Sequence record: MW250785 | Length of the DNA stretch: 64,000 bases | Direction: 5' to 3' (one strand) | From: Escherichia phage UPEC03 | Position numbers and translations under genes: made by a program | The notes under the pieces: generated by a model | The model's database searches: none | Seen by the model: only the letters and a program-made list of their open reading frames with translations | What the model was told of the DNA's origin: nothing | In this document: positions 4,904 to 59,403 of the stretch, in pieces | Layout: each line of letters starts with the position of its first letter | Position numbering within the stretch: the stretch's first letter is position 1

Positions 4904-4905
4904 CA

Positions 4906-16207: not shown

Positions 16208-16285
16208 TTTTCTTCCTTTTCATTATTCATGCGGTATGTGTATATAATACAAAAGCCCTCACGCGAACGCAAGGGCTTTTTTAAT
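16208..16285 (-). promoter_or_regulatory. Terminator-promoter-leader module (copy 2 of 6)
   Basis: Minus strand AAAAAAGCCC-TTGCGT-N17-TATTAT after NatV stop; hairpin 16251-16282. Confidence 0.45.
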
Positions 16286-31749: not shown

Positions 31750-32006
31750 TTTACACTCCGTTTCAGTTTACGTTCGTCAGCCAGTTCTTTTTTGTACGTT
31801 TTGATGTACTTCCCGTTAAGGATGCGAAGCTGTTGGAAAACTTTGTTGCACAAAGCACGTTTTGCTTTGTATTCCTGCGTATTACGGATTGATTCGACCG
31901 TCATACCCATTTCGTTTTTAGGGTACGCGCTCAACTCCCTGCCGATCTCTCTGTGCCAGTTGCTTAACTGATCACGCTGTGCTTTGTACTCTTCAAAAGT
32001 TAACAT
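31746..32006 (-). CDS. Hypothetical basic protein (86 aa)
   Basis: Coupled small ORF. Confidence 0.4.
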   Translation of the reverse strand: MLTFEEYKAQRDQLSNWHREIGRELSAYPKNEMGMTVESIRNTQEYKAKRALCNKVFQQLRILNGKYIKTYKKELADERKLKRSVK

Positions 32007-32072
32007 AACAATCTCCGGTTTCGTTTCTATGTGTGTAAGGTATCATTACCCTACACACAACGCAAGCGATTT

Positions 32073-32273
32073 TTATTTTCCGTAAAGAACACAATATTCT
32101 TTATATTTTTCACGGGCTTTTTCTTCATTACTAAAGGAAACTCCCATTCCAAAATCAGAACCTTCGAACGTAACATCCCACGATTCATACCCATCTTCCG
32201 AATAATAGGAAAGTGTTATTTTACGATCTTCAAGAACAAGTTGTTCAACAACAATATCAATTTCAGTAGTCAT
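32073..32273 (-). CDS. Hypothetical protein (66 aa)
   Basis: ATG overlaps upstream small ORF stop (ATGA). Confidence 0.4.
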   Translation of the reverse strand: MTTEIDIVVEQLVLEDRKITLSYYSEDGYESWDVTFEGSDFGMGVSFSNEEKAREKYKEYCVLYGK

Positions 32274-32416
32274 AGTTCATTTCCATAATCTTTTGCTGCA
32301 TCTTCGGGGGTTGCGTCCAGTCGGTAAAGCTCAACGGCTAACGGACTGGGTTTGATTTCGCGGTTCAGGATCTCACTGATACCGCGAAGGAATTCGATAT
32401 AAGGACGGAATCTCAT
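32270..32416 (-). CDS. Small ORF (48 aa, not in ORF track)
   Basis: MRFRPYIEFLRGISEILNREIK...; ATGA overlaps at both ends link it into the coupled chain. Confidence 0.35.
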   Translation of the reverse strand: MRFRPYIEFLRGISEILNREIKPSPLAVELYRLDATPEDAAKDYGNEL

Positions 32417-32664: not shown

Positions 32665-32730
32665 GATATCCTCCTTCGTTTCGATGTGTGTAATATAACA
32701 AAACCCCTCACCATAGACAAGGGGTTTCTT
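32665..32730 (-). promoter_or_regulatory. Terminator-promoter-leader module (copy 4 of 6)
   Basis: Minus strand AAACCCC-TTGTCT-N17-TATATTA-CACACATCGAAACGAAGGAGG-ATG. Confidence 0.5.
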
Positions 32731-32746
32731 TAACAAAAAGTGCTAT

Positions 32747-33349
32747 TTAATAGTATCCAGGATCTTTGAAGTGTGCTTTCATATATCGCAGAATTTCACG
32801 CAACATCTGGGTTTGCTCATGTCCACACTGTGAAGCCATATCGATCATGACGCGAGTCATTTCGACGTTCTCCAAGCTGGTTATACGCTGTTTTAAGGCT
32901 TTGTTTTCCTCTTCCAACTCAACCATACGGTCATATGCTTTGATGCGCTCCAAAGGCATATCAGGGCGCTGTTTGAGGACACGGGCGCGTGACACTTCGC
33001 ATTCGTGATTTGCTTTCCAGTGATCACGTTCACCAGCAATTTTATCATTCTCCTGGTGTAGACGTACAATCTCTTTAAGGAGGCGTTCAGTGGTATCGGG
33101 ATCAAACGAAACCATGTATTGCATCAGGGATTGCAACCACAGATCCTCTTGTACCGCCTGTAACGCTTTAGGCCCAATAATGGTAAACTCGCGTTTCTTC
33201 ATGTTGCTACCGCAACCGTAGTTAACGTTACCCGCAATCGAACCTGGTTGATTAGTACCATCCCATTTGTCACCGATAACAGGTTTTACTTGCTGAATAG
33301 CACGATTCAGCATTTCGAATTCTTCATCTAAAATCATTTCATATCCCAT
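32747..33349 (-). CDS. Hypothetical protein with coiled-coil region (200 aa)
   Basis: ORF with ATG start. Confidence 0.5.
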   Translation of the reverse strand: MGYEMILDEEFEMLNRAIQQVKPVIGDKWDGTNQPGSIAGNVNYGCGSNMKKREFTIIGPKALQAVQEDLWLQSLMQYMVSFDPDTTERLLKEIVRLHQENDKIAGERDHWKANHECEVSRARVLKQRPDMPLERIKAYDRMVELEEENKALKQRITSLENVEMTRVMIDMASQCGHEQTQMLREILRYMKAHFKDPGYY

Positions 33350-36938: not shown

Positions 36939-37224
36939 AATGTTCTTCGTAATCCTCGCATTCTGGGAGATAGGTTTCGCAGAACATACACAGCGTGAAG
37001 AATGTAGGCTGGCGAATTCCGATATTATCGGGTAAGTACATCCAGAACGTGTTAGCAAACACGATGAACGTTTTCAGGTTTTCAACGGTTACGGTACTGA
37101 CACCATCATAACCGGATTGAGCAATTGCGCGTTCCAGGGGAACAGGGTATTGCTCGCAGTAATCGACGTAATGATCGCTTGTTACAAGCGCATTAGCCGC
37201 TTTTACGAGATCGGTAATTTTCAT
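36928..37224 (-). CDS. Hypothetical protein (98 aa)
   Basis: ORF with ATG start. Confidence 0.4.
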   Translation of the reverse strand: MKITDLVKAANALVTSDHYVDYCEQYPVPLERAIAQSGYDGVSTVTVENLKTFIVFANTFWMYLPDNIGIRQPTFFTLCMFCETYLPECEDYEEHYGE

Positions 37225-37487
37225 TCAATATATCCCCAACGAATTTTTACGTTATCTTCTGACGCCGGACTTGTAGGAGTTGGGTATGGATAACTTTGCG
37301 CTTCCCACAGATAAACAATGGCGTGTTTTGTCAATTCTTCGATAACTTCATCGAAAGTACCGACACTGGTTTGTAAAGGCAACGAGAAAGGTTTATCGTT
37401 GGTTTCTACTTGAGCGATTGGCCCATCTACCAAGATAACACGAACCGTTGTGTGCTCAGACATATGAGCATAGATTTTGTTTTTCAT
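37221..37487 (-). CDS. Hypothetical protein (88 aa)
   Basis: Coupled ORF. Confidence 0.4.
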   Translation of the reverse strand: MKNKIYAHMSEHTTVRVILVDGPIAQVETNDKPFSLPLQTSVGTFDEVIEELTKHAIVYLWEAQSYPYPTPTSPASEDNVKIRWGYIE

Positions 37488-42078: not shown

Positions 42079-42932
42079 TAATATCTGTTCCAAACTTTCT
42101 TCGCGCTGTATGGTTTTCCTTTGGACTGGAAAGCCTGTGTAGGCAACCAAACTGCTTTCGCCCAATCTTTTGGGGCGATCTCTGCAAGTGGTGAACGTAG
42201 ATGGGCTGGCAGATAGGCTTTGATCATTTGATCAGCCCCGCGCATTCCCTTCACGTTGTTCCAGTTGATTTTCAGTCTGGTTTTGTTAGAAAGTCGATCT
42301 GTTGATCCGTAGCCACGTTTCAGGAGTTCTTCTAAAAACTCTTGACGTGCTCGCGGTGGCGCATAGTGCAAGTTCAGCCCGTAAAGAACCAAGTTACCCG
42401 CTTTCGAACGTCCTGAACCCAGGAAAATGATCAGCGGGAACCGATCCCAGTATGGCAGGGTGTCTTTGTATTTCGCATCGTAGATGAACGTATACAAACG
42501 ACCCGTTGCTGGTTTCGCAACCCTGTGCGTCTTAATGCTGGTTTTGATGAAATCACCAAACCAATCGGTCGAATCTTTCTGACGTTTCGCAGCGGTTACA
42601 CCAACAGTCATTTTCTTCAAACTGTTGCGGAAATCGTTTACGATATCAACCGCGTGTTTTTTGCGATAATCATTACGTTTGCGTCGGGCTTCGGTTTCTG
42701 CTTTACGGCGTTCGATTTCATCATCAATCTGCTGCTTATAGCGGTGCATAGACTTTGTGAACGTTGCGTATGCAATCCCGTTTTCGTCCGCGAACTTTTT
42801 GGCTGTCATGCCTTTTAATTTTGCGCGTCGGAATTTGATACCAAGTTCAACCCATTCACCCAGCTTTCGCTTCGGTGGTGGTTTTGGCTTGTCTTCTTCT
42901 GCGATGATCTCGAACTCAAAAATAAAACTCAT
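42078..42932 (-). CDS. DNA end protector protein (gp2-like)
   Basis: 284-aa basic protein; strong SD GGAGGG; minus-strand AATAAATA late-promoter-like motif about 20 nt upstream (42951-42957); synteny 4-2-3-1. Confidence 0.45.
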   Translation of the reverse strand: MSFIFEFEIIAEEDKPKPPPKRKLGEWVELGIKFRRAKLKGMTAKKFADENGIAYATFTKSMHRYKQQIDDEIERRKAETEARRKRNDYRKKHAVDIVNDFRNSLKKMTVGVTAAKRQKDSTDWFGDFIKTSIKTHRVAKPATGRLYTFIYDAKYKDTLPYWDRFPLIIFLGSGRSKAGNLVLYGLNLHYAPPRARQEFLEELLKRGYGSTDRLSNKTRLKINWNNVKGMRGADQMIKAYLPAHLRSPLAEIAPKDWAKAVWLPTQAFQSKGKPYSAKKVWNRY

Positions 42933-42953
42933 AATTCCCTCCGTTTAGGGTAT

Positions 42954-43421
42954 TTATTGCCCTTTCCATCCGAACACACGTTTCAATGTGTCCTCTGTGA
43001 TGATCTTGAACTCCCAGCCCTTTTGTTTTGCTGCTGCATTCGCGGCTTTCCATTTGTCAATGTTTACTGCATACGTATACAGTGCATCAACGAATTTCTT
43101 TTTGTTGTGAACGTTGTTGTTCGCTGGCTTAGGTGGGGGCAACGTTTCTTTCATCGGTTTGACTTCCCAAAGGTAGGTCACTCCATTATCCATTTCGACA
43201 TAGAAATCCATGAAGTAACGCCGTCGCTTTCCGTCTGCGTTGCTGAAATAAGGGATCACAACGCATTCTGAATTCCACCTCTTTACGTGGGGATTTCGGT
43301 CTAACCAATTCATTATATATTTTTCCCATGAAGAACGATATGTTATTTTTCTGGGATCTCCTTTATACTTTTCTATCTGTTGTGGCATAAAGGAACCTTT
43401 GTATGTCTGTCTTCCAGTCAT
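42954..43421 (-). CDS. Head completion protein (gp4-like)
   Basis: 155 aa (T4 gp4 about 150 aa); position between gp2-like gene and the 53/5 block. Confidence 0.45.
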   Translation of the reverse strand: MTGRQTYKGSFMPQQIEKYKGDPRKITYRSSWEKYIMNWLDRNPHVKRWNSECVVIPYFSNADGKRRRYFMDFYVEMDNGVTYLWEVKPMKETLPPPKPANNNVHNKKKFVDALYTYAVNIDKWKAANAAAKQKGWEFKIITEDTLKRVFGWKGQ

Positions 43422-44089
43422 TATTTCACCTTACAATTATCAAAATGCCACCTATACATTGCTCTGGGGTTTCCTTCTTTTCCGCAATGTGGACATATTA
43501 CAGGTTTCGTGTTTTTAGCTGAGTCGCGCATCTTTTGTTTTGCTTCTTCGCTAATAATTCTTCCTGTTAACGAAGCGCTAAGGTTATCTCTATGCTCTTT
43601 AGAACGGTTTGACGCAACTCTACTCATTTTTTGTTTGAATTCATCACTTCTCTTTATTCCGGTCATCCCTTCGGAAATACTTTTCTTGTGTGCTTCTGAT
43701 AGCGGTTTCCCTTTTATTGATTCTCGTCTTTTTCGTTTCCAATCATCGCTACGTGGTGGGTGTTTAGTCCCTATAGAATTGATTCGATTTTGTTCGGCTA
43801 CTTTCTCTCTGATCCATCCGTAAGTTCGAGAAGTCATTCTTCCAGAATGAAATCTTGATGCCATTGACATCATCTTACACGCGTATATAAGTTTTCCGTT
43901 TGTTGGGTACATTTTGACGAGTAGTTGATGGGCGAGATAGTGTTCTTCGGCAGTGAGACAAACGATATTTTCGGGTTCGTCCATTCCTCCCATACACCGA
44001 GGGATGATGTGATGGTTTTCTGAATACCCGCTTATAGTTCTTGATTGTGCTCTTTTGATAAGAAGTTCATAGTGTTTGCGGTAATTCAT
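43421..44089 (-). CDS. HNH homing endonuclease-like protein with basic repeats and C-terminal zinc ribbon
   Basis: HHIIPRCMGGMDEPENIVCLTAEEHYLAHQ; C-terminal CPHCG...C; AT-rich; sits between gp4-like and gp53. Confidence 0.75.
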   Translation of the reverse strand: MNYRKHYELLIKRAQSRTISGYSENHHIIPRCMGGMDEPENIVCLTAEEHYLAHQLLVKMYPTNGKLIYACKMMSMASRFHSGRMTSRTYGWIREKVAEQNRINSIGTKHPPRSDDWKRKRRESIKGKPLSEAHKKSISEGMTGIKRSDEFKQKMSRVASNRSKEHRDNLSASLTGRIISEEAKQKMRDSAKNTKPVICPHCGKEGNPRAMYRWHFDNCKVK

Positions 44090-44098
44090 GCGTATTCC

Positions 44099-44105
44099 CT
44101 AAATA
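44099..44105 (+). promoter_or_regulatory. Candidate late promoter (CTAAATA) for gp53-gp5 operon
   Basis: ccCTAAATAgt about 32 nt upstream of the gp53 GTG, with AGGAGA SD between. Confidence 0.4.
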
Positions 44106-44136
44106 GTAGTAATATTCATATTTAGGAGAAGCCATC

Positions 44137-44691
44137 GTGTTGTTCTCATTCTTTCCACCAGTTGATTACAAAGGCACACCAACTACTGATATCTACCGCG
44201 ATTATCGTTTTTACTTTAACCGCGTGATCAGGAATTATAAGCCGCGTACATATCAACTGACAGGTTCATTAAGACCCGAACAATTAGCGGAAACGCTATA
44301 CGGAAACCAGCAATACTACTGGGTTATCCTGATGCTTAACGATAATTACGATCCGTTTTACGGATGGATTACCGATCAGGAAACGGCTTATCAATGCGCT
44401 ATCCAGCGTTATTCAAAAGCAGGTGGTGAACAGGTTCTTTATCATATGGATGGTAAGGGCAACCGTTATTACAATTTGGTTGAAGACCCTACGAATCCCG
44501 GTCATTGGTATGACAAAGGCGATAAGAACATGCGTTATTTGCAGTACCAGGGAACATTAGTCCCTGTAGATATTTATGAAGATGCGGTGCTTCAAAATGA
44601 AGCAAAACGAACCATCAAGATTATTAACCCCTCTGATATTCAATCATTTGTAAGTGATTATATCAAGGAAATGGAAAAGGCAAACCTATGA
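44137..44691 (+). CDS. 53: Baseplate wedge subunit gp53-like
   Basis: 184 aa, GTG start with AGGAGA SD; overlaps gp5 start (ATGA). Confidence 0.6.
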   Translation: MLFSFFPPVDYKGTPTTDIYRDYRFYFNRVIRNYKPRTYQLTGSLRPEQLAETLYGNQQYYWVILMLNDNYDPFYGWITDQETAYQCAIQRYSKAGGEQVLYHMDGKGNRYYNLVEDPTNPGHWYDKGDKNMRYLQYQGTLVPVDIYEDAVLQNEAKRTIKIINPSDIQSFVSDYIKEMEKANL

Positions 44692-46454
44692 AATACGGTG
44701 GAAATAAATACTCCCCTTTCTTTGAGGGGGTGGTCGAAGAAGTCGATGATCCTCGTCTATTGGGGCGTGTTCAGGTGCGTGTATTCGGTGAGCATCCGGC
44801 ACAGAAACAAAAATCTGAAACTATCGGTATTCCGGTTGAGGAATTGCCGTGGATGATGCCTATTCAGGATATTCGCAGCGCCGCTATTTCTGGTGTTGGT
44901 TTTTCCCCGACTGGTATCACGCGCGGTAGTTTCGTTATCGGTTACTGGCGCGATAAATGGCACCAGGACGGCGTTATACTGGGAACCTTTGCGGGTGAGT
45001 ACCGAGAGAAGCCGGACACCCAGAAAGGCTTCTGTGACCCGTTTGGTGAGTATCCTCGTTATGTAGGTAACGATGTCAACGTACTGGCTCGCGGTGGCGC
45101 AGAGGGGCGCGGTTCTTCAAGCGTGATTATTCGTGATGCTAACAGTTCGTTAGCTGTCAATCCAGATGATCGCCCACTTGACGAGATCCCAGAAGATAAC
45201 CGACCTGATACTGGTGGGTTTACGATAGAAAAAATGATCCGTGGTGATGAAGGTATTAGATTGACGTGGTATTATGATGTTAAAGGTTATACCATCGGGA
45301 TCGGGCACTTTTTCTTAACCGCACCACAAGGAACAGACCCAGCAGTTGTTAACGCTGCGTTATCTAAACAAATTGGCAGAACGGTTACTGGTGTTCCTGG
45401 ATCAATCACTGCTGATGAAGCGAGTGTTTTATTTCAGCAGGATTTAGCTAAAGTTCATAACGATATTCAGAATAATAGCAAAGTTCGCGAAGTGTATGTG
45501 ACGTTAAACCGTCCTCGTCAAATGGCTATTGAAAATATGTGCTTCCAGATGGGTGTTGGTGGTGTCGCCAAATTTACGAATGCTCTGGCTGCTATGAAGC
45601 GTCAGGACTGGCAAACCGCTTACAACGAACTGCGAAACTCTACATGGGCTAACCAGACGCCAGGACGTTCTTCACGCGTATCTAAAATCGTTCTGACGGG
45701 CAACCTTGAATCATACGGTGTTCAGGTTCCAGATCCAGAAGGGCGTTCATTGAGTGCTGCTTATAATGCGGTGGTTCTGCAAGCAAGCAACCCAGAAGAT
45801 CCTTTTGTTCCTGGTGATACCCGCGTAATGTTCGAGGAACCTAAATCGGCATACGCTGCTGCATATCCATACAACATGGTATTCGAATCCCGTTCTGGAC
45901 ACATTCAGGAATTCGACGACACCCCAGGCTTTGAGCGTTACAACCGCGTTCACCCAGCAGGATCATACGAAGAAATTCGTCCTGATGGAACCCGTGTTGT
46001 TAAAATCGTTGGTGATGATTATCAAATCGTCATGCAAGGCCGTAAATTAAACGTCAAGGGTAATTTGCAGGTTGTTATCGAGGGTGATGCGTTCATTTAC
46101 AATATGGGTAACGTTCAACAGACCGTTGATGGTAACGTGACCGAGTTCGTGCGCGGTAACGTGAATCAAACCGTTGAAGGTGAATATTTGGGGCTGATTA
46201 AAGGCAACGCAGAATTAACCGTTGAAAAAGATGCAACCGTAAACGTGAATCAGAATTTAATGGCTAACGTTAAACAGAATGCAACCGTTGCCGTAACTGA
46301 GGATGCAACAATTACCGCAAAAAATGCTCTGATTGATATTGAGCAAGATTTGGATATTGGCGCACGTAATATCAACATACGAGCATCGAATAATACTTTC
46401 ATTGATTCCGGCGCACTGACTAAGATCACTGGCGGAACAGTCCAGGTAGGTTAA
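44688..46454 (+). CDS. 5: Baseplate hub subunit and tail lysozyme gp5
   Basis: Central T4-lysozyme-like domain (DEGIRLTWYYDVKGYTIGIGH, MCFQMGVGGVAKFTNAL, WANQTPGRSSRV); C-terminal beta-helix repeats (VxGNxxxxV). Confidence 0.9.
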   Translation: MKYGGNKYSPFFEGVVEEVDDPRLLGRVQVRVFGEHPAQKQKSETIGIPVEELPWMMPIQDIRSAAISGVGFSPTGITRGSFVIGYWRDKWHQDGVILGTFAGEYREKPDTQKGFCDPFGEYPRYVGNDVNVLARGGAEGRGSSSVIIRDANSSLAVNPDDRPLDEIPEDNRPDTGGFTIEKMIRGDEGIRLTWYYDVKGYTIGIGHFFLTAPQGTDPAVVNAALSKQIGRTVTGVPGSITADEASVLFQQDLAKVHNDIQNNSKVREVYVTLNRPRQMAIENMCFQMGVGGVAKFTNALAAMKRQDWQTAYNELRNSTWANQTPGRSSRVSKIVLTGNLESYGVQVPDPEGRSLSAAYNAVVLQASNPEDPFVPGDTRVMFEEPKSAYAAAYPYNMVFESRSGHIQEFDDTPGFERYNRVHPAGSYEEIRPDGTRVVKIVGDDYQIVMQGRKLNVKGNLQVVIEGDAFIYNMGNVQQTVDGNVTEFVRGNVNQTVEGEYLGLIKGNAELTVEKDATVNVNQNLMANVKQNATVAVTEDATITAKNALIDIEQDLDIGARNINIRASNNTFIDSGALTKITGGTVQVG

Positions 46455-46456
46455 TC

Positions 46457-48547
46457 ATGATCATGGATTACGAAACCATCATTGATGGGATTATGCAAAA
46501 TTTTCAGCATCCTTGCGATGCTGAGATCCCCGCTGGATATTACCGACGCGTTATCTGGCAGGGACACACAGAAAATTACCCCGCTGTTGGGGTAGAATGG
46601 GCGACCGAAATCATCCCGATCGGAACTCACCTGTATACGAGTTCCCCTTTCGGGCAGAAAAGCGATCCGCTTCCGGTGGTGAACTCTCCAAACGTACCCA
46701 CAAACCCAGATGGAAGCCCTGGAGTTTCTACTGATATTCTGGTTACGAAGATTGGTTATTATTTCGCCAGTCAAGCGGATATTGATGCCTATATCACATC
46801 GATCGGGGCTACGAAGCTCGCGGGCAATGACTGGTACGGGGCTGATTTGTCAAAAGCGAATCTGTTCAAGAACCCTGGCGAACTCGCAATGTACAAGGCG
46901 GAAAACTCCGGTGGTTACTTGCTAACTTCCGGCCCCCGTTGCGATCAGCGAATCCGACAGGTATACAATCAGACTACAGGCGCATTTACCAGCATTGATT
47001 ATTACTGGAATGGCAATCGTATTGCTTACATGAAACACGACGAATCCCCAGCGCACCAGTGCAAGTATACAGGGATGTCAGTAAACACGAACGCAGATAC
47101 CAGTATTCCTCCGGTTCCTCCGGCTCTCCCGTCAACGTATGGGGCGCTACCGAGTGAGATCTCTTTGTTGCGTTCTGCTCGTTCTGGACTGGGTTGTATT
47201 CCGGCGACCGTAGGCTTTGCATACACTAACATTAGTGATGCTATGTTGTCCGCATGGAACGAGACTCGTAAAACGTTCAAGCTGGCTTTTGATATGCTGA
47301 CGGGTACGATTAAGAACGGTACGGGCATTGCGACGATGTTTGACGGGCTTTCGATCGGGATGGAAGAAATCACAGCGGGTGCTCTGGCATTGTCACAGCA
47401 AGCATGGCAAACCGCAATGAAGGTATTCCGACAGATCATTAGCTCTGCGTTTAACATCGTGGGCGGGGCGTGGGATTTGATCAAGAATTTCCTCCCGACT
47501 GTTGCGATCATGGGTGTTGCGATCAACATTTACGATCTGGTGTTTGGTGATAGTTCGGTTCAATCCCTGAAAGATTCTTTCCAGTCTCTGATTGATTCCG
47601 GCGCACAGACGTATGAAAGCGTCATAAACGCAATATACGGGGCTATAGGCAGTTCTTACAACTACGCCGTTGAATACGTCAAGGCTGGCGCTCGCGACCT
47701 TGTAGACGCGTGTAGCGCGTTATTTGACTGGTGTTTGACTATGTTCCAAAATGGTTGCGTTGCTTTGGTGGATTTGTACGGGCGTATGATGCAGATCTGG
47801 TCAATGCCTCCTGAAACACCAAACCCGCTTTGGTCTGCGGTGTTGGCTATCCGTAACATCATGCGGCAGATTAAACCACTTGATGTGATTCTGGGCGGTA
47901 ACTTCCCAGGGTTTACAGCAATGGATCTGTATCAGCAAGCACAGGTCAAGGTTAAAGCAGTTATCGATGCATCATATGCGCAGATCTCCGCATTGTATGA
48001 ACAGGCGCAAGAAGTTTACAAAACCTTGACTTCTCAGACTCAGGAAAGGGATTCGATTAAACGTAAGTTCGACCAGTACCTTAACTGGATGTGGGAACCT
48101 GTAACTGAAATGGCTACCGCTGCTTATCAGGCTTCACTCGATGCAGCAAACGCGGCTATTGCAGCGACTAAGGCAACATATGAGGGCATCAAGGCGCAGA
48201 TCGCATTGTTGCAGGATGGATTGAAAGACACCTACAGCATGGCGATGGATGAACTCAAGAAACTTCCTGTAATGGCTCAGATTAACCAGTTCTTAGGTTA
48301 CTGTGGGGTTGCATTCGATGACCTGTTAAAAACGTATGACAACGCACTGACGGGCGCTAAATCGCTATACAAAGACTTTGTTGACAGTTCCAGATCGTTT
48401 AAGGATACATGCAAAGTAATATATAACCAGATTTGTACGCTTGCCCTAAGTAAAGTGACTCAATATGTTAACAAGCTATTGTCTCTGATTGGACTTGCGA
48501 TCACTTTCGGTTCGATTAGTGTTTGCGTCCCTATGGTTCAATACTAA
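46457..48547 (+). CDS. Hypothetical 696-aa protein between gp5 and gp6 with hydrophobic helices
   Basis: ATG 2 nt after gp5 stop; hydrophobic segments (NFLPTVAIMGVAINIYDLVF; C-terminal LLSLIGLAITFGSISVCVPMV) and long helical A/Q-rich region; no PAAR motif seen. Confidence 0.6.
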   Translation: MIMDYETIIDGIMQNFQHPCDAEIPAGYYRRVIWQGHTENYPAVGVEWATEIIPIGTHLYTSSPFGQKSDPLPVVNSPNVPTNPDGSPGVSTDILVTKIGYYFASQADIDAYITSIGATKLAGNDWYGADLSKANLFKNPGELAMYKAENSGGYLLTSGPRCDQRIRQVYNQTTGAFTSIDYYWNGNRIAYMKHDESPAHQCKYTGMSVNTNADTSIPPVPPALPSTYGALPSEISLLRSARSGLGCIPATVGFAYTNISDAMLSAWNETRKTFKLAFDMLTGTIKNGTGIATMFDGLSIGMEEITAGALALSQQAWQTAMKVFRQIISSAFNIVGGAWDLIKNFLPTVAIMGVAINIYDLVFGDSSVQSLKDSFQSLIDSGAQTYESVINAIYGAIGSSYNYAVEYVKAGARDLVDACSALFDWCLTMFQNGCVALVDLYGRMMQIWSMPPETPNPLWSAVLAIRNIMRQIKPLDVILGGNFPGFTAMDLYQQAQVKVKAVIDASYAQISALYEQAQEVYKTLTSQTQERDSIKRKFDQYLNWMWEPVTEMATAAYQASLDAANAAIAATKATYEGIKAQIALLQDGLKDTYSMAMDELKKLPVMAQINQFLGYCGVAFDDLLKTYDNALTGAKSLYKDFVDSSRSFKDTCKVIYNQICTLALSKVTQYVNKLLSLIGLAITFGSISVCVPMVQY

Positions 48548-48551
48548 ATAC
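48545..48551 (+). promoter_or_regulatory. Candidate late promoter (CTAAATA) upstream of gp6
   Basis: aCTAAATAcc about 20 nt upstream of the gp6 ATG. Confidence 0.3.
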
Positions 48552-48570
48552 CCGATAAAGAGGGGTAATA

Positions 48571-50481
48571 ATGGCTACTTTAAAGAAACAAATTAATCAG
48601 ATCCCCGATATTTTTGTCGGGGCTACTTTCGAAGAAATCAAAGCGGACTTAATTAACTGGCTCCGTGGACAAGAAGAATTCAAAGACTACGATTTTTCAG
48701 GCTCGCGTATGAACGTGCTTGTGGATCTGCTGGGTTATGCTACTCTGTACATTCAACAGATGGGTAACACTGCACTGTTCGAATCGTTTATTCGTACTGC
48801 GGCGCTTCGTAGCTCTGTTGTGCAACACGCTCAAGATTTGGGCTATATGCCGGATTCCCGTACTGCTGCAAGCACTGCGATCATGGTTACTGCTAAAAAC
48901 CCACTGAACCCGACATCGATCCGTATTCCGCGCGGTACGAAATTCATCGGTACAGTAAAACAGACAAACAGTTTCCCGTTCGTCGTATCTGATGACGTGG
49001 TTATCGTTCGTGACAAAGACAACAACTATGTTTCTATGCTGAACATCGTTCAGGGGCGTTTAGTACGTACCGAAGTCATCTTCGACGGCTCTACTATCCT
49101 GATTCGAGATCCAAACATCGATCGTAGTCAGGTTCGCGTTACTGTTAACGGCGCACAATGGGATGACTGGACGAATGAAAGTATCGTAAACGCCACGGGC
49201 GCATCAACAATTTTCTATATGCGTGAAACTGTGGACGGACACACCGAAGTTTACTTTGGTGAAGGTGAAACAAGCCAACAAGTCGCGGGTGGTGCTCTGA
49301 CTGCTGATTATATCGGTGGTCTGAAACCAGCAAACGGATCAACTATCGTTATTGAATATATTTCGACGAACGGAGAAGATGCTAACGGTGCTGAAAACTT
49401 TGTTTACGTGGATACGCTGACAAACATTAGCATTACCAGCATCACCGAAAACCCTACAGATTCCTCTGATTATGTCGGTGCTGATGGTGGTGGCGAACCG
49501 GAGAATATTGAACGTATTCGTGAACTGGCTCCGATCATGCGTGAGACACAGCGACGTTGCGTTACTGCATCGGATTATGAATCGTTCTTGTCACACCGTT
49601 TCGGTTCTGTTATTCAGGCGGTTCAGTGTTTTACCGATAGCGAGAAACCTGGTTATGCATTCATTTCCGTTAAGCCTAAATCTGGTTTACGGTTGACTTC
49701 TGTACAAAAAGAAGACATGCAAAACTATCTTGCGAAGTATAATCTTGCGACGATCACGCCGTCTATTCTCGACCCGAACTACTTGTATATTGTACAAAGC
49801 ATCAAAGTAACGTATGATATCAGCAAACTCGTTGAGTCGGAAGAATGGTTGCGCGGTCAGGTAATCACAGCGATTGATAATTACTATACTGATAACGTTG
49901 AAATTTTCAACAAATCATTCAGTAAGTCCAAAATGTTAACCTATGTTGATAATGCGGACGTGTCGATCATTGGTTCCTCTGCTACGATTAGCCTGTTGCG
50001 TGAACTGGACAACTACTACAGCGCCCCAATGTCAGGTATTCACTTCCTGAACCAAGTAGCGCCGCGCAGTATTGTTTCGAACGGTTTCAAGTACACAAAC
50101 GCCGCTGGTGATTCGTATAACGTTCGTTATGCGTCAACCGCTGCCAACAGTTCTGGACGGGCAAAAATCGTGATTGGGCCTTTCAAAAACGGCGATATCG
50201 CTATTACTGCGTATACAGGAACCGATTTTAATAAATACCCAGGAGTCACGGATCGTACTAAATATTACGAAGTCGGATATGCGGAACACTACACTGATTT
50301 CATTAGTTTCGATCTGGGTGTGCTTAACGTCCCTGCTGAACGCTTTAGCGCTGCATACATCGAACTGACAGCAACACCGTTAGAAGAAACTATTTTCACC
50401 CGCGATGGTTCCTTGATTGTATTTGAAAACGATCTACGTCCTCAATATACAACGCTGACGATGAACCCGATCAGTCAATAA
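48571..50481 (+). CDS. 6: Baseplate wedge subunit gp6
   Basis: N-terminal IPDIFVGATFEEIKADLINWLRGQEEFKDYDFSGSRMNVLVDLLGYATLYIQQ closely parallels T4 gp6; 636 aa. Confidence 0.85.
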   Translation: MATLKKQINQIPDIFVGATFEEIKADLINWLRGQEEFKDYDFSGSRMNVLVDLLGYATLYIQQMGNTALFESFIRTAALRSSVVQHAQDLGYMPDSRTAASTAIMVTAKNPLNPTSIRIPRGTKFIGTVKQTNSFPFVVSDDVVIVRDKDNNYVSMLNIVQGRLVRTEVIFDGSTILIRDPNIDRSQVRVTVNGAQWDDWTNESIVNATGASTIFYMRETVDGHTEVYFGEGETSQQVAGGALTADYIGGLKPANGSTIVIEYISTNGEDANGAENFVYVDTLTNISITSITENPTDSSDYVGADGGGEPENIERIRELAPIMRETQRRCVTASDYESFLSHRFGSVIQAVQCFTDSEKPGYAFISVKPKSGLRLTSVQKEDMQNYLAKYNLATITPSILDPNYLYIVQSIKVTYDISKLVESEEWLRGQVITAIDNYYTDNVEIFNKSFSKSKMLTYVDNADVSIIGSSATISLLRELDNYYSAPMSGIHFLNQVAPRSIVSNGFKYTNAAGDSYNVRYASTAANSSGRAKIVIGPFKNGDIAITAYTGTDFNKYPGVTDRTKYYEVGYAEHYTDFISFDLGVLNVPAERFSAAYIELTATPLEETIFTRDGSLIVFENDLRPQYTTLTMNPISQ

Positions 50482-50485
50482 TTTC

Positions 50486-50517
50486 AACCCCTGTCATCCG
50501 GCAGGGGTTTTTTGTTT
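50486..50517 (+). terminator. Intrinsic terminator after gp6
   Basis: AACCCCTG-TCATCCGG-CAGGGGTTTTTTGTTT. Confidence 0.6.
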
Positions 50518-50518
50518 G

Positions 50519-50525
50519 CTAAATA
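50519..50525 (+). promoter_or_regulatory. Candidate late promoter (CTAAATA) upstream of gp7
   Basis: gCTAAATAtg about 36 nt upstream of the gp7 ATG, immediately after the terminator. Confidence 0.35.
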
Positions 50526-50561
50526 TGGGATATAAGTAAAACGCAAATTTGGAGAAACATA

Positions 50562-53500
50562 ATGATTAAAGCGCCGTCAATTACCAGTTTGCGCGTTGAT
50601 AAACTGGCTGCTAACTTCGTATATTTGAAGTGGGATAGCGTAGGCATGGATTTCTACTACGTGGTAGAAATGGCTGAAACTCGCGGTGCGGGTGGTGCTG
50701 TGGTTCCAGATGATGAACTTACCTGGTTTCAATTAGGTTACGCATATCAGAACGAATGGTTTTCTTCTGACGTACAGCCCAACAGCTATTACAAATATCG
50801 CGTCATGGTTACGCATAAAGGCTTTGACCCGTCTGACTGGGTTTATACAGAGGAACTCTGGACATTCGATCTCAACGCATACACATATTCGACTATGCGT
50901 GAATTCACACCAAGTGATGCATTCATAAACGAAAAATTTTCAAAGAATAACAGAAACTACGTGAATTTTGATTCTGATGTGGTAATGGCGGCTCTGATGA
51001 AAGAAGACTTTGTGTTTTCTCCATTATACACCGACGTTTCACAAATCAGTGATAAAATCCTTACTCAAGAAAACTATCATGAGATCCAGGATCATATCGA
51101 ACACGTTTGTAACGACATTAACAGAACTTTCCTGGTAGCGTCAAACGGTTTGCTTTATCTGTTTGAACGTTTTCAGAACATGGCGAAGGTATCAAACGAC
51201 AAAGGGCAAACATGGCATTACTACAAGGCGTTTAACGACCGCGTAGGAAACCCTGTATCGCGCTCTGTTGCGTATCAAAGCCGAAACACAACCTATGTAC
51301 TGGGTTACGATCGTATCTTCTACGGGCGCACCTCAACAGATATTCGCTGGTCTGCGGACGATGTGCGATTCTCTGCTGATGATGTTACGTTTGCCAAACT
51401 GGGGAACCAGACGGGCTTAGATTTCGATGTAGACTCATACAACACGTTTGCTAAATTGCCTGGTAACGTGGCGAAATATGCCGAAGCAATGGCCTGTTCT
51501 GATGGCTGGCTCTATGTTGCTGCTAAAAACGTCATGCGTCGTATCGCTCTGAAACAGACACCGATCGATACGAACCCAAGTTCACCAACGTTCGGGGAAA
51601 AGATTTTCGATACTGTTAGCTATACAATCGTACCTGGTAATGATAAGATTGTTGTTAAGAAAATGGATGTTATGGACGGCATTCTGTACGCGCTTGTAAC
51701 GGGTGAGGTGAAAACTGCTCTGTTAGATCCAACAAAACCTGCTAACGTTAAATCGTCTACTGCATCCGGTGTGTATCAGTGGCAAGAAGACACTAAAACT
51801 TTTGTACGCCTGTACGGGAACACGGAAAAAGAACGTTTCTTCATTGAACATCAATACACCAATATGTCAACAAACGGTACAGAAATTTTCATTTCTGTTG
51901 CAAACTACAAGTATCCTGGAACTTTACCAGATCCAGAACTGGTGGTGGAAAACCCAGCGTTGGTTGATGCGGTGAAATATGATCTGCGTCCTGGCTATAC
52001 CTCCAGCCTTGCGATCAACTTCACGACGATTCGCGCACACATCGACGATCCTACTGTGTGGAAATTTGGTGCTCAGGAATACTACAACGAGGCAAACTAT
52101 AGTTGGTTCTTCCGCGATTCTGTTCGCACATGGATTACCAATGATAACCGCCCTCTGGTGGTGTACCCGAAAATAACGTATACGCTAGTTACTGATAGTG
52201 CTGGCACGTCATCATCGCTTCGTGTTAACCGTGAAGTGTGGGATCGTGGTAATGTGAAAATCTATATCAACAACATCAAGTTTACTGGTTTTACCAAGTA
52301 CACTAACGGTGTGTTACTGTATAAGAGTTCAGGCGAAATCATCGGATTTTATGAGTTGAGTTATCGCGCCCGTGACAGTTTAACGATTTTCTGGAAACCA
52401 GACAATACTTTGTTGATTGCTAATCTGATTCAGCAGGAACGAGAAAAACCATATACGCCAGATCTGTCTCCTGGTTTGATTGACCCAGATTTAAGCCATA
52501 TGATTACGCGCTTTGCGCCTCAAAGCTATCTGGAACAGCAATATTTCGAGAAGTTCGGGGAATATTATTTGCAGTTCGTTTCATTGGGTGAAAATACCTA
52601 TTATAACAAACTGTTGAACCTGATCAGGAACAAATATCCTCGCGAACCAAACAGCGTTGAATATCTCTGGTCGGAAGTAAACCGCCGTAATATCTACCTG
52701 GATAAATCGAAACGTGATCAGGTTGTTCGGTTCTTCGAATCCCGTGCGAGTGACTTCTATTCGTCAAAGGGTATCGAAACCAGTTACAAATTCCTGTTCA
52801 AAATGCTGTATAACGAAGATGTTACCGTTGAAATCGAAAGTTCAAACACTCTCGAATATGATATTTTGGTATCGTCAACGAATATCAGCCAGGATATTGT
52901 AGGCCGGACGATTTACACACCAACAGCAAGAGCTAACGTGACGTATATCGAACGCAACTATGAAAACGGACAATTACGCTGGTCAATGACTCTGCATAAC
53001 GTGATAGGAAACTTCCTTGAAGGTCAGGTTGTCAAGTCAGAAAAAACTAACTTTACTGGAATGGTTCTGCGTGGTGTTCGTGGTAAACAAATGGCGAATA
53101 ACTCGATCGACTACTTCAACCGTGGACGTTCGTACTATGTGATGAAAATTCGTTCGAATCTACCAGCATCCCGTTATAAGGATGATGTTCTGCGATTCGT
53201 TCACCCTGTAGGCTTCGGTTTTATTGGAATCACGATGTTGACTGTTTTCATTAACTCTGGTTTGTCTATGACGCATAGCGAAACGATTATTGATATTCTT
53301 CGAAATTATCGCTATGACAGTGGTTATCCGAAGTATTGGCCTGATCGTGTAGCCCGTCTTGATGGTAACGGAAATCAGACATTCGACCTCGTAACAGGAG
53401 AAGCATTATATGATGCACATCCTAAAGCCGGACAGCTTTTTGATGTTCCTCCTGAATATGATGTTGATGAACAACCGCTGAATGGTGTTTTACCTTCTGC

Positions 53501-53645
53501 GCGTCGATTTGATCAAAGTCCACTGTTCGATAGCTCTGCGGTTAAATACTCTCAGTTCCGTAACTTAGTGGAAAAACGATTGAAAGATGACGCTGGTAAT
53601 CCACGCGATCCAAATCCACCGTCACAAAGAAAGGTAGGAAAATAA
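50562..53645 (+). CDS. 7: Baseplate wedge initiator gp7
   Basis: 1027 aa (T4 gp7 is of similar size); position between gp6 and gp8. Confidence 0.7.
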   Translation: MIKAPSITSLRVDKLAANFVYLKWDSVGMDFYYVVEMAETRGAGGAVVPDDELTWFQLGYAYQNEWFSSDVQPNSYYKYRVMVTHKGFDPSDWVYTEELWTFDLNAYTYSTMREFTPSDAFINEKFSKNNRNYVNFDSDVVMAALMKEDFVFSPLYTDVSQISDKILTQENYHEIQDHIEHVCNDINRTFLVASNGLLYLFERFQNMAKVSNDKGQTWHYYKAFNDRVGNPVSRSVAYQSRNTTYVLGYDRIFYGRTSTDIRWSADDVRFSADDVTFAKLGNQTGLDFDVDSYNTFAKLPGNVAKYAEAMACSDGWLYVAAKNVMRRIALKQTPIDTNPSSPTFGEKIFDTVSYTIVPGNDKIVVKKMDVMDGILYALVTGEVKTALLDPTKPANVKSSTASGVYQWQEDTKTFVRLYGNTEKERFFIEHQYTNMSTNGTEIFISVANYKYPGTLPDPELVVENPALVDAVKYDLRPGYTSSLAINFTTIRAHIDDPTVWKFGAQEYYNEANYSWFFRDSVRTWITNDNRPLVVYPKITYTLVTDSAGTSSSLRVNREVWDRGNVKIYINNIKFTGFTKYTNGVLLYKSSGEIIGFYELSYRARDSLTIFWKPDNTLLIANLIQQEREKPYTPDLSPGLIDPDLSHMITRFAPQSYLEQQYFEKFGEYYLQFVSLGENTYYNKLLNLIRNKYPREPNSVEYLWSEVNRRNIYLDKSKRDQVVRFFESRASDFYSSKGIETSYKFLFKMLYNEDVTVEIESSNTLEYDILVSSTNISQDIVGRTIYTPTARANVTYIERNYENGQLRWSMTLHNVIGNFLEGQVVKSEKTNFTGMVLRGVRGKQMANNSIDYFNRGRSYYVMKIRSNLPASRYKDDVLRFVHPVGFGFIGITMLTVFINSGLSMTHSETIIDILRNYRYDSGYPKYWPDRVARLDGNGNQTFDLVTGEALYDAHPKAGQLFDVPPEYDVDEQPLNGVLPSARRFDQSPLFDSSAVKYSQFRNLVEKRLKDDAGNPRDPNPPSQRKVGK

Positions 53646-54638
53646 ATGGCTCAACAAAACATTTACCGTGCGGTTGTAACTGGTAAGTTCCGCACGGAAA
53701 ACATGATGAACTTTCGCGAAATGATCGGGGATGCCTCCGATCATAACTCGATTTATATGTCGATCGGGAGAACTGAACAATGGGCGGATAATGAATCCGA
53801 CCCAGAATTCGCGCCCCCTTATCCTAACGATGATACAGATGGTATTGTCGATATGTGGACGCATATGATCGGGATGACTAAAGTTCCTGGCGAAATGATT
53901 GATGCGATCGTTCCCCGTAAAGACTGGGGCGATACACGATATCCGAACCCTAAAATCTTTTACGTTAATGATATTGTGGTTGTCAACTCCGCTCCTTATA
54001 ACCGTACTGACTACGGTAAAGGATGGATGGTATATCGCGTTGCTGACGTTCCTGATATCGGTTCTTGCTCTATCTCCAGCATCACGGGGAAAGTTGAATG
54101 TGTGCGTATTGGTGGCGTTTGGACACCTACACACGAATCGATCGAACCTCCACGCGGAGAAGCGAACGGTATTGATATGGGCGACGGTTATATCTGGGAA
54201 TATCTCTACACGATTCCACCAGATGTTGTGATCAACCGTTGCACAAACGAACATATCGTTGTTCCGTTCCCGAATGAACTCGAAGAAGATCCGGTTCGCT
54301 GGGGTTACGACAACGTAATCAAATGGTATCCAGATATGTATGATTTGGTTTACCGAATGAAGGTTCACTCAATGCGATTCCGTGCGTATATGGATTCGTT
54401 GTTCTTCCCGCAAGCCTCTTTACCTGGGAACCGTGGATTCCGTCAAGTAAGCGTTATTGTAAACCCGCTACTTAAAAAGGCGCAACCCTCAGACCCAGAA
54501 GTAAAAGCAACAGGCCAGTATTACACACGGAATCAACTTGAACTGGATTCAGGACAAATGATCTATATGGAAAACCGTCAACCGATTATTCGTTCTCCTG
54601 ATCAGACCGAAGAAGTCAGTATTATTTTCGAATTCTAA
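53646..54638 (+). CDS. 8: Baseplate wedge subunit gp8
   Basis: IYRAVVTGKFRTENMMNF...FAPPYPNDDTDGIVDMWTHMIGMTKV parallels T4 gp8; 330 aa. Confidence 0.8.
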   Translation: MAQQNIYRAVVTGKFRTENMMNFREMIGDASDHNSIYMSIGRTEQWADNESDPEFAPPYPNDDTDGIVDMWTHMIGMTKVPGEMIDAIVPRKDWGDTRYPNPKIFYVNDIVVVNSAPYNRTDYGKGWMVYRVADVPDIGSCSISSITGKVECVRIGGVWTPTHESIEPPRGEANGIDMGDGYIWEYLYTIPPDVVINRCTNEHIVVPFPNELEEDPVRWGYDNVIKWYPDMYDLVYRMKVHSMRFRAYMDSLFFPQASLPGNRGFRQVSVIVNPLLKKAQPSDPEVKATGQYYTRNQLELDSGQMIYMENRQPIIRSPDQTEEVSIIFEF

Positions 54639-54648
54639 GGAAACCATA

Positions 54649-55512
54649 ATGGCATATCAAACAGGTAAAAAATTGATTGACGTGGGGCAGATCGGCAACC
54701 CGTCAACTGGTGATCCGCTGTATGACGGCGGTGTTAAATTAAACGAAATGGTAACGAACATATACAACGCATTTGGTGATGTTCGTCTGCTTAGTGCTAA
54801 TAATGGCGTTGGTACAATGTTGCTTCACGCGACTGGTTATTATCAAAAGCTGCCTCGCACATATTATTCAGGGAACCCGATCGAATTGGGTTCTTTGCAT
54901 GATATGGATACTTCTACAGGGCCGATTACAGTTGTTCTCCCTACGGGTAAGTTAGGTGAAGGATGCTATTTCATAAATAGTAACGGTAGCGTTTCTGTTG
55001 ATCGCCCTATTGTTTTCCGTCCTCAAGTTGGCGATGGAATTACGGGAGTACAGGATCAGCTTTACGTGACCTCCCCGTATACCCGCGTTATGCTGTGGTG
55101 TACGAAGAAAGAGGGTTCAGTAACTACATGGGATTATTCAGTAGAATCAATGTTCGGTTCTAAAACAATGCCCGTTGACGCTACCAAACTAATTTTGAAA
55201 GCATCATCTACCGCAATACCGTTATTTGGTTACAGTGAGTTCAGCGGCGCGAAACTTCTCGTGTATGCTGAAAATATGAGAGGTACAGTCACTAAAATGG
55301 CTGAAATTCTGTTAGGCGTGGATCGTGTCGCTCGAAATGTGTATTCAACTGAATATGCAGTATTGAAAAACAGCGACGATGATATGTACACGCTAAACTT
55401 CACTGTTGGCGCTGGTGATGTGGTATATGCTAACGTTCAATCCAAACTCGAAGATCGTATTAAGTTTACGATTAAAGCGATTGACACCATTAAATCAGGG
55501 ATCGCAGCATGA
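54649..55512 (+). CDS. 9: Baseplate wedge / long tail fibre attachment protein gp9
   Basis: KKLIDVGQIGNPSTGDPLYDGGVKLNEMVTNIYNAFGD...HATGYYQK parallels T4 gp9; 287 aa. Confidence 0.8.
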   Translation: MAYQTGKKLIDVGQIGNPSTGDPLYDGGVKLNEMVTNIYNAFGDVRLLSANNGVGTMLLHATGYYQKLPRTYYSGNPIELGSLHDMDTSTGPITVVLPTGKLGEGCYFINSNGSVSVDRPIVFRPQVGDGITGVQDQLYVTSPYTRVMLWCTKKEGSVTTWDYSVESMFGSKTMPVDATKLILKASSTAIPLFGYSEFSGAKLLVYAENMRGTVTKMAEILLGVDRVARNVYSTEYAVLKNSDDDMYTLNFTVGAGDVVYANVQSKLEDRIKFTIKAIDTIKSGIAA

Positions 55513-57326: not shown

Positions 57327-57991
57327 TGAAACAACAATTTATTTCCAAAACAAGGGAGGGGGCGAAAGTCCCTTCCCGCGAAGCAGATTTTTTACAATAT
57401 GAAATGGGTACGAAAGACCCTTTGATTGGTGGTAAACGTACTATCGGCGGCGCTAACGTCGATCAGCTTCGCAAAGGGGTTGATTATCCTAACGTACAAT
57501 CAGCAATCGACGATCTATATTCTTTATCTCAGCAGATCCCGATTAACGGGGTGATTATGATGACCGAAGATAGTCCGCCGTCTGCTGTTCAGCAAGTAGA
57601 AACAATTAAGTTTGGCGGTGCGGTATTAAACCCAGACCCGGATCAGACAAAAGCAACTATTCACGTATACGGATTCCCATTTGTATTCGATAATACAACT
57701 AACGCATCAAGTGTGTGTGAAGAAGTATATAACACCTTTAACGATTTTGTTACCCATGAAAAATATTTCGATTTGGTGACTCGTAAAGGGCTTAACGGGG
57801 AAATGCTGGAAGTTCGTTTTATTGATGCAGTTCCGCATCCGGTAACTAATAAAACAGAAAACGGTATTTCTATGGTCGGTACGATCGACGTTCAGGCTAA
57901 ATCTGGTTATGGCACATGGTCGAAATTGGGTGAAGTTGATTTGGCAGTCACACCAACAATTCCGATCTACTATTTCCAGCGTATTGCATAA
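57326..57991 (+). CDS. 11: Baseplate wedge subunit gp11
   Basis: 221 aa (T4 gp11 is of similar size); position between gp10 and gp12. Confidence 0.65.
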   Translation: MKQQFISKTREGAKVPSREADFLQYEMGTKDPLIGGKRTIGGANVDQLRKGVDYPNVQSAIDDLYSLSQQIPINGVIMMTEDSPPSAVQQVETIKFGGAVLNPDPDQTKATIHVYGFPFVFDNTTNASSVCEEVYNTFNDFVTHEKYFDLVTRKGLNGEMLEVRFIDAVPHPVTNKTENGISMVGTIDVQAKSGYGTWSKLGEVDLAVTPTIPIYYFQRIA

Positions 57992-58000
57992 GGATAACAA

Positions 58001-59392: not shown

Positions 59393-59403
59393 AGGGGTTA
59401 TCC

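Follow-up and report, generated by a model that had tools for sequence, protein, structure and literature searches.

The question raised by this locus is what kind of gene lies between the head completion gene gp4 and the baseplate wedge gene gp53 of Escherichia phage UPEC03 (sequence record MW250785), from where it came, and on which DNA it might act. For the stretch of 64,000 nucleotides analyzed here, called the window, gene order (gp3, gp2, gp4, then gp53, gp5, gp6 onward) and DNA identity indicate a T4-like Pseudotevenvirus of the RB16/GAP161 group, and Klebsiella, Enterobacter, and Cronobacter phages of this group are 96-99% identical to the window at the DNA level. A first-pass annotation had placed an HNH endonuclease between a gp4-like gene and gp53, and the open reading frame (ORF) at 43421-44089 on the minus strand, coding for 222 aa, is located and composed just as it had described. 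From homology and from the pattern of exchange in the surrounding DNA, we consider it highly probable that this ORF is a free-standing homing endonuclease gene (HEG) of the MobE-like HNH family, which would spread by cutting or nicking gp4 alleles of phages that lack it. The parts of the locus are:

42954-43421, minus strand: gp4 head completion gene (TnsA-like nuclease), 155 aa, in frame, abutting the HEG via a TAATG overlap
43421-44089, minus strand: probable MobE-family free-standing HNH homing endonuclease gene, 222 aa, assigned by PHROG 655 and MobE homology
43433-43495, minus strand: C-terminal CPHC...H...C zinc knuckle, aa 199-219, from the 51-sequence alignment
43505-43777, minus strand: NUMOD3-like helical repeat region, aa ~105-195, presumed DNA-binding linker, from sub-threshold Pfam matches and the model
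43928-44029, minus strand: HNH catalytic core, aa 21-54, YSENHHIIPRCMGGMDEPENIVCLTAEEHYLAH, from alignment, profile, and model
44137-44691, plus strand: gp53 baseplate wedge gene, divergent neighbor, Pfam E 4.6e-63

The focal protein falls into PHROG 655 "homing endonuclease" (E 8e-64). Over its N-terminal 75 aa it shares 57% identity with MobE of T4 (E 3e-27), and hhalign aligns it with MobE at a probability of 99.95% (E 1.5e-38). Across the family, represented by an alignment of 51 sequences, H26, H27, N41, H50, and H54 are invariant, and C199, P200, C202, H215, and C219 are nearly so. The family profile matches the HNH core of McrA over aa 21-50 in a PDB sequence search (E 1.3e-3) and also the HNH domain of a group II intron maturase (E 0.011); a PDB search with the single focal protein returned just weak Cas8-HNH matches (E about 0.5). 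An alignment-based AlphaFold model (pLDDT 88) places two strands (aa 24-27 and 42-45) and a helix (aa 47-60) at the HNH motif with a pLDDT of about 97, followed by six short helices and then a small zinc knuckle. As in the HNH (His-Me finger) superfamily, the catalytic residues are found in a predicted strand-strand-helix metal finger and, as in the Mob family of T4, a MobE-homologous nuclease domain is encoded by a separate ORF outside any intron or intein and between conserved genes. Judged by alignment and model, the protein is composed of three putative parts, an N-terminal His-Me-finger nuclease, helical NUMOD3-like repeats, and a C-terminal zinc knuckle, of which the repeats and the knuckle most likely read the DNA target. 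For many homologues of the focal protein a match to the Pfam family NUMOD3 (PF07460) is precomputed. The G+C content of the focal ORF is 0.399 compared with 0.443 for the window.

The focal gene was not found in any of the 197 phage records matching the region. The best of these records align on either side of the gene across a 673-bp gap, and in phi1_146010 (L001) the empty site consists of a 43-bp gp4-gp53 spacer. In the nearest relatives without the gene the local backbone is 99-100% identical to the window. A sensitive DNA search with the focal gene reached 71% identity at best, in the HNH motif region alone, and detected endonuclease genes located elsewhere in other phages. Thirteen contexts of protein homologues were examined, with amino acid identities of 41-93%, in at least six named genera and several unclassified backbones. 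They include metagenomic relatives with 93, 75, and 69% identity, an allele termed P0031, the Klebsiella phages Clarke_MM3, Roth77, and KLB2, Erwinia COW86c, Providencia Gualtarvirus, Aeromonas Biquartavirus, Yersinia Tegunavirus, and Aeromonas phiWae14. The homologue is situated between gp53 and gp4 in 12 of the 13 contexts and directly downstream of gp4 in the remaining one (Aeromonas phiWae14). Polymorphism exists also within a genus, as 37 Jiaodavirus records possess the gene and many others lack about 714 bp; KEN25_1 and KEN25_2, which like KLB2 are recorded as Jiaodavirus, differ in having and lacking it, respectively. In T4 the spacer between genes 4 and 53 is empty. Several GenBank phages have the same-slot gene annotated only as "homing endonuclease", and a literature search found no paper on a gp4-directed endonuclease or a gp53/gp4 hot spot, which is absence of evidence only.

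Comparison with HEG-less and HEG-bearing relatives resolves the locus into segments of different origin:

43252-43421, minus strand: co-converted gp4 5' end, codons 1-53, 98-100% identical to L007 and 68-80% to L001
43982-44089, minus strand: HNH aa 1-36, putative second-donor segment, 69% aa identity to P0001 (L007), 86% aa and 82% nt identity to P0031 (L016)
44090-44136, no strand: intergenic region, 98% identical to L016 (over 44100-44150), unlike the HEG-less 43-bp spacer

On both flanks the window is 99-100% identical to phi1_146010, and identity drops to 68-80% in 43251-43400. The first 159 nt of gp4 contain 39 mismatches to phi1_146010, and the next mismatch is located at nt 237; of the first 53 codons 30 differ, 26 of them synonymously, compared with 8 of the remaining 102 codons. 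The left crossover lies inside 43252-43262. The closest homologue of the endonuclease, P0001 with 93% identity, is encoded on the SRA-assembled contig L007 in the same arrangement as in the window (gp53, HNH, gp4, gp2). Window positions 43250-43980 are 94-100% identical to L007, whereas identity in the L007 flanks falls to about 75%, and the L007 backbone reaches 75.7% at best with known phages. Over endonuclease codons 37-222 the window and L007 differ by 15 synonymous and 5 non-synonymous changes, a pattern consistent with purifying selection and with a gene that would still be under selection. From about 43982 the window leaves L007 and instead approaches P0031, an allele of 232 aa found in the gp53/gp4 slot of contigs L016 and L017; in their backbone these contigs share about 90% identity with the window. 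Sequence of the phi1_146010 type resumes after nt 12 of gp53. These comparisons show a foreign patch of roughly 900 bp, about 43252-44150, in a phi1_146010-like backbone, and they show the first 53 codons of gp4 and most of the endonuclease gene to be of one donor lineage. As judged from these identities, the cassette is a chimera of two endonuclease alleles joined to the phi1_146010-like backbone by homologous junctions, and the focal gene is an apparent recent arrival by copy-and-paste recombination from a distant phage. That the flanking nt 1-159 of gp4 travelled together with the focal gene is the footprint expected of homing. An exact 30-mer of the intergenic region, used to search for the second donor, had no match in IMG/VR.

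Two other origins were considered and rejected. Transposition by a transposon or insertion sequence does not fit the borders of the insertion, which show no target duplication and no direct, inverted, or terminal repeats and have their junctions in homologous sequence. Gene conversion from the in-genome paralogue at 14855-15613 as the source of the HNH N-terminus is rejected at an amino acid identity of just 46%. The start of gp53 (44137-44139), too, lies inside the imported patch; it is GTG in the window, L016, and L009 and ATG in HEG-less relatives.

Both neighbors of the focal ORF, gp53 and gp4, are intact and uninterrupted; the gp4 product is 52% identical to gp4 of T4 (E 4e-60) and contains the Pfam TnsA-like N domain. 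The TAA stop codon of the HEG overlaps the ATG of gp4 by 1 nt (GTGAAATAATGACTGG), and the last codons of the HEG (TGTAAGGTGAAATAA; TGT AAG GTG AAA TAA) contain a Shine-Dalgarno-like AAGGTG ahead of this ATG, so that with motif and overlap together the insertion need not silence gp4. Divergent late-promoter-like CTAAATA motifs are situated before gp53 (44099-44105, plus strand) and before the endonuclease gene (44119-44125, minus strand), and an AGGGAA ribosome site precedes the endonuclease ATG. The endonuclease gene would be expressed from its late-promoter-like CTAAATA, and gp4 would then be translated by coupling. The 7-mer occurs 8 times in the window compared with about 8 times expected by chance, and just its placement upstream of late genes is suggestive of a late promoter. 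A scan of 42800-44400 for sigma-70 promoters and terminators gave counts near the shuffled expectation.

A clue to the target of the enzyme comes from the place at which the imported DNA ends within gp4. Jiaodavirus KEN25_1 and KEN25_2 differ by 44 mismatches in nt 1-154 of gp4, by none from there until nt 352, and by none at all in gp53, the replaced DNA beginning 13 nt upstream of the gp4 ATG (-13 to +154). Similarly, mismatches between L016 and L001 are dense through gp4 nt 160, and with the window included the divergent tract ends at gp4 nt ~155-165 in three independent comparisons of HEG-bearing with HEG-less phages. At this position the alleles differ in a particular way:

43263-43271, minus strand: gp4 codons 51-53, TCA GAA TGC (S-E-C), vs. 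HEG-less AGT GAA GAG (S-E-E), the contrasted forms being AGTGAAGAG and TCAGAATGC

HEG-bearing alleles read TCN GAR TGC (S-E-C) in the window, L007, L008, L009, L016, L021, and L004, HEG-less alleles read AGY GAA GAR (S-E-E) in L001, L002, and L020, and T4 has S-E-T at the same codons. The change at the tract end affects 6 of 9 bases and includes the non-conservative substitution E53C. A degenerate scan for the S-E-E/AGY form identified 39 IMG/VR loci, of which about 21 have gp53 directly upstream and no endonuclease gene; in 2 of the 39 there is a homologue with 41% identity that belongs to another subclade.

In homing, the stretch between the homing gene and the break is always copied along with the gene. 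Since the distal end shared by three backbones coincides with the 6-of-9-base change, the target is predicted around TGGAACAGTGAAGAGGTTGTGATCCC, a 26-bp stretch at gp4 nt ~150-170. This site would be separated from the insertion point by ~160 bp and would immediately precede the conserved VVIPYFSNADGK(K/R)RRYF coding block, and the S-E-C substitutions there would confer self-immunity. During co-infection the enzyme would nick or cut the HEG-less gp4 allele, the recombination machinery of the phage would repair the break from the HEG-bearing genome, and the repair would copy the endonuclease gene and everything between gene and break. On a wider scale we tentatively propose, as a reading to which we give somewhat less than an even chance, that a gp4-dedicated MobE-like lineage present across much of the Straboviridae has been reshaping gp4, with a portable immunity 5' end (the Ser-codon switch together with E53C), a frameshift in several genera, alleles recombining in a shared slot, and a target readable at nt ~155-165.

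Several points speak against this account. The focal protein scores below the Pfam cut-offs for HNH (PF01844; 16.9 bits, cut-off 21.4), HNH_5 (16.8 bits, cut-off 27.5), and NUMOD3 (17.9 bits, cut-off 20.4); the low HNH score is attributed to a short and divergent motif, and homology to MobE is unambiguous. S-E-C gp4 alleles were not found by degenerate pattern scans of IMG/VR or of JGI metagenome contigs, and those known came to light through searching with that gene's homologues, which biases their ascertainment; because the unbiased scans returned none, the link between S-E-C and the endonuclease rests on these gene-ascertained alleles. The 41%-identity subclade adjoins unchanged S-E-E alleles (L013, L028, and L047), and the proposed immunity change is therefore not universal across the family. 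The tract end could also mark where usable homology begins, or the descent of one patch, and both activity and target of the enzyme are predictions.

The strongest competitor, which we judge unlikely and yet worth keeping in mind, accepts an active homing endonuclease and has its site span the insertion point, that is, the start of gp4 plus the spacer, so that the tract end in gp4 would be a by-product of homology resuming. By landing at the gp4 ATG, the insertion breaks up the junction of spacer and ATG, which alone would be enough for immunity; no DNA nearby is as conserved as gp4 beyond nt ~160, a natural crossover point between diverged phages; and the S-E-E codons retained by the 41%-identity subclade fit this alternative. 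However, in Jiaodavirus the replaced DNA extends into gp4 and not to the gp53 side, an asymmetry expected for a break inside gp4, and it is precisely where the tract ends that HEG-bearing alleles of two genera have 6 of 9 bases changed, one outcome being the E-to-C replacement. Other runs of identity between L001 and L007, for example 17 nt at the start of gp4, were not used for crossover, and MobE and SegG are known to act at a distance from their genes (PMC2790892).

Clearly less probable is that gene and flank were moved by ordinary homologous recombination, the endonuclease being a passive passenger that is inactive or irrelevant to its own spread. Genomes of T4-like phages are highly mosaic, many small blocks of the window have been replaced relative to phi1_146010, and the two donor types within the patch show plain recombination inside the cassette. 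In contrast, no catalytic or zinc-binding residue has been lost, the closest allele differs by 15 synonymous but only 5 non-synonymous changes, and the same family holds the same slot across at least six named genera. In addition, the foreign tract is short, centered on the gene, and has the same end within gp4 in three backbones, which is unexpected for random crossovers. The small blocks replaced relative to phi1_146010 elsewhere in the window are 16014-16241, 20304-20484, 32006-32279, 32700-32864, 33022-33334, and 37224-37481.

HNH proteins assist terminases in HK97-like phages, and a domesticated accessory factor acting with gp4 and gp2 in head completion or DNA-end processing might be imagined from the tight linkage and translational abutment to gp4, the late structural cluster with its late-promoter-like motif, and a position adjoining gp4 in 13 of 13 contexts, but this explanation is hardly credible for a gene with a MobE-like catalytic domain that is missing from 197 of 197 related phage records, among them viable phages with flanks 99-100% identical, and whose same-slot alleles, down to 41% identity and shuffled, are what one expects of selfish elements, not of a conserved protein of morphogenesis.

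An observation in its own right concerns gp4 itself, which in several HEG-bearing relatives has a 1-nt insertion just after the YRS(S/T)WE codons (TGGGAGCRATTT-C-RTKATG). The carriers are the Jiaodavirus phages Roth77, KEN25_1, and KLB2, Yersinia phiR1-RT, and the Logan contigs L016 and L017:

L004 3659-4109; L021 1660-2110; L014 2686-3136; L012 ~2700-3136; L016 ~4701-5169: gp4 with the 1-nt insertion

As a result of the extra nucleotide, gp4 is broken into two ORFs of about 37 and 118 aa; it is in frame in the HEG-less phages KEN25_2, phi1_146010, GAP161, and T4 as well as in the window. Translation of the split gene might restart internally behind GGGAG or slip by +1 on UUU-C, or the N-terminus might be dispensable.

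Spacers adjacent to the gp53/gp4 slot are occupied in other phages. A Seg-like GIY-YIG gene is located in the gp2/gp4 spacer of RB16 and GAP161 (L002 1430-2119), and a "putative mobile endonuclease" in the gp2/gp3 spacer of Providencia PSTRCR_121 (L005 4916-5593), and because adjacent spacers are occupied in some phages the gp3-gp2-gp4-gp53 stretch is regarded as a landing zone for multiple elements. On the other side, the alignment of about 20 relatives ends at window position ~45231 within gp5 (44688-46454), and Enterobacter phage EC-F1 has an annotated "homing endonuclease" with ~600 extra bp in the gp5 region, which suggests another polymorphic element in or near gp5 of relatives; gp5 of the window is intact and codes for 588 aa. 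The block of baseplate, tail-fibre, and whisker genes at 44138-61314 is ~87% identical overall to phi1_146010, with flanking regions at 95-98%, which indicates a probable separate module exchange of the host-range genes.

The first-pass annotation had also listed four other endonuclease genes in the window, all of which exist; they are given here together with a mini-ORF upstream of one of them:

11917-12453, minus strand: HNH_3 plus AP2 gene, paralogue a, first 19 nt shared with the 3' end of the C5-methyltransferase gene
14855-15613, minus strand: second MobE-like HNH gene, C-terminus of I-HmuI NUMOD-like type, stop overlapping the nucleotidyltransferase ATG by 1 nt
15641-15676, minus strand: mini-ORF MKMIMETVFGF*, ATGAAAATGATTATGGAAACCGTGTTCGGATTTTAA, apparent remnant copy of the nucleotidyltransferase 5' end, upstream of the second HNH gene
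26069-26593, minus strand: HNH_3 plus AP2 gene, paralogue b, start overlapping the upstream stop by 1 nt
63157-63930, plus strand: endonuclease-family gene with two CapR Zn-finger domains, Pfam E 8e-18, PHROG 681 "endonuclease"

The five genes are all GC-poor (0.34-0.41). At none of the five loci do all relatives carry the same genes, which supports their interpretation as mobile passengers. The gene at 26069-26593 is present in about 22 listed relatives, others lacking exactly ~525 bp; those at 11917 and 14855 occur together in phage Banach only, one of the two in few relatives, and neither in most; and the gene at 63157-63930, in the gp14/gp15 slot, is present in about 10 relatives, others having a different "mobile endonuclease" or nothing there. 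The notion of a heavy load was not borne out, because in T4 the count is 15 in 169 kb (PMC2988022), and beside this the five genes, 5.1% of 64 kb, are of typical and not exceptional density. The 1-nt TAATG overlaps, taken as a sign of insertion as coupled passengers, are indeed present at the stop of the focal gene, the stop of 14855-15613, and the start of 26069-26593, hence at three genes out of five, yet they are not specific to these elements because such overlaps are common between ordinary genes of this phage group, an annotated relative having at least nine 1-nt junctions of this sort.

The proposed paralogy of the two HNH-AP2 proteins is confirmed, the products of 11917-12453 and 26069-26593 being 40% identical (E 5e-37). 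HNH_3 scores 27.2 bits (cut-off 24.8) in the former and 21.5 bits in the latter, AP2 is detected in 26069-26593 only (24.7 bits, below the cut-off of 33.3), and both match PHROG 99 "HNH endonuclease" (E 2.6e-48 and 1e-55, respectively); they are AP2-associated HNH endonucleases. The C5 cytosine DNA methyltransferase gene adjoining the first of them is located at 12435-13358 on the minus strand (Pfam E 3e-92), and phi1_146010 has a different 441-bp gene at the position of 11917-12453.

The N-terminus encoded by 14855-15613 is 46% identical to the focal protein over 84 aa and 38% to MobE. The mini-ORF upstream of this gene matches the HEG-less phi1_146010 allele (ATGGAAACCGTGTTCGG), and the functional nucleotidyltransferase now starts with MKMITEMIFGS; the mini-ORF looks like a leftover of the 5' end before insertion and would map the insertion of 14855-15613 within few bases.

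The possible GIY-YIG-like ORF at 63157-63930 is indeed a gene of an endonuclease family, and its product is a homologue of T5.141 (36% identity); the GIY-YIG label itself is unproven, the protein having CapR domains and no GIY-YIG match. Its C-terminal domain shows invariant Y166, KFGIT176-180, R187, E217, and DGYTET, with a strand-strand-helix-strand-helix topology whose likeness to GIY-YIG/T5orf172 is seen by eye only. Neither Pfam (E<=10), NCBIfam, a PDB sequence search, nor Foldseek with an alignment-based model (pLDDT 83.5) gave a GIY-YIG or T5orf172 match for this protein, and the C-terminal domain may be an unmodelled branch of the T5orf172/GIY-YIG nucleases.

The focal gene is an ordinary kind of element, and the current understanding of such elements is unchanged by it. 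Much of the mosaicism and marker exclusion among T4-like phages is driven by free-standing homing endonucleases, few of which, to our knowledge, have a known target. The present locus offers a clean natural example, in which donor types, recipient, and both crossovers can be named within about 10 bp, together with a concrete target prediction, a 26-bp gp4 stretch with a specific immunity change. The gp53/gp4 spacer appears to have housed one endonuclease family for a long time and in many genera, which include phages used in Klebsiella, Enterobacter, and Cronobacter therapy; there, these elements will bias what emerges from co-infection in cocktails.

Among known systems, the companion genes resemble classes described in ICP1-like and T5-like phages by Barth, Dunham and Seed 2023, who reported nuclease genes at boundaries of genetic exchange, domain shuffling, and CapR/T5orf172 and AP2-HNH ("IPA-HNH") classes, both of which T4 lacks (PMC10448857). 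CapR recurs in 63157-63930 and HNH_3 plus AP2 in 11917-12453 and 26069-26593, and nuclease genes are found at exchange boundaries in those phages as in the window; the C-terminal domain of 63157-63930 differs from the T5orf172 class in matching neither the T5orf172 nor a GIY-YIG profile. Closest in position are the "homing endonucleases" upstream of gp4 in other Straboviridae, i.e., Yersinia phiR1-RT g148, Jiaodavirus KEN25_1, Roth77, Providencia PSTRCR_121, Aeromonas avDM9-HANS, and Erwinia COW86c, which belong to the same family over the full length (41-53% identity) and occupy the same gp53/gp4 slot. None of them matches the window gene at the DNA level, several are accompanied by the +1 frameshift in gp4 that the window lacks, and the window allele is unlike theirs an apparent chimera of L007-type and L016-type alleles. 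GIY-YIG homing endonucleases share no sequence relationship and belong to a different catalytic family, GIY-YIG instead of HNH, but they spread as predicted for the focal enzyme, with a cut in a neighboring conserved gene followed by conversion carrying the gene and flanking markers (PMC2988022; works cited in PMC2790892).

A further close relative is MobE, an experimentally demonstrated nicking homing endonuclease encoded between nrdA and nrdB in T4 (PMC2790892). Like the focal gene, mobE is a free-standing gene between conserved genes with a TAATG-type 1-nt overlap with its neighbor (PMC2988022). MobE comprises 141 aa compared with the 222 aa of the focal protein, which adds the NUMOD3-like repeats and the CPHC..H..C knuckle, and it acts on nrdB in the early nrd operon, whereas the focal gene occupies the gp53/gp4 slot of a late structural cluster with gp4 as its presumed target. 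In the 5' region of nrdB, which lies downstream of mobE, MobE places a nick in the non-coding strand, and recombination points map to that region (PMC2790892); this is the same geometry that the tract ends suggest for the focal endonuclease and gp4.

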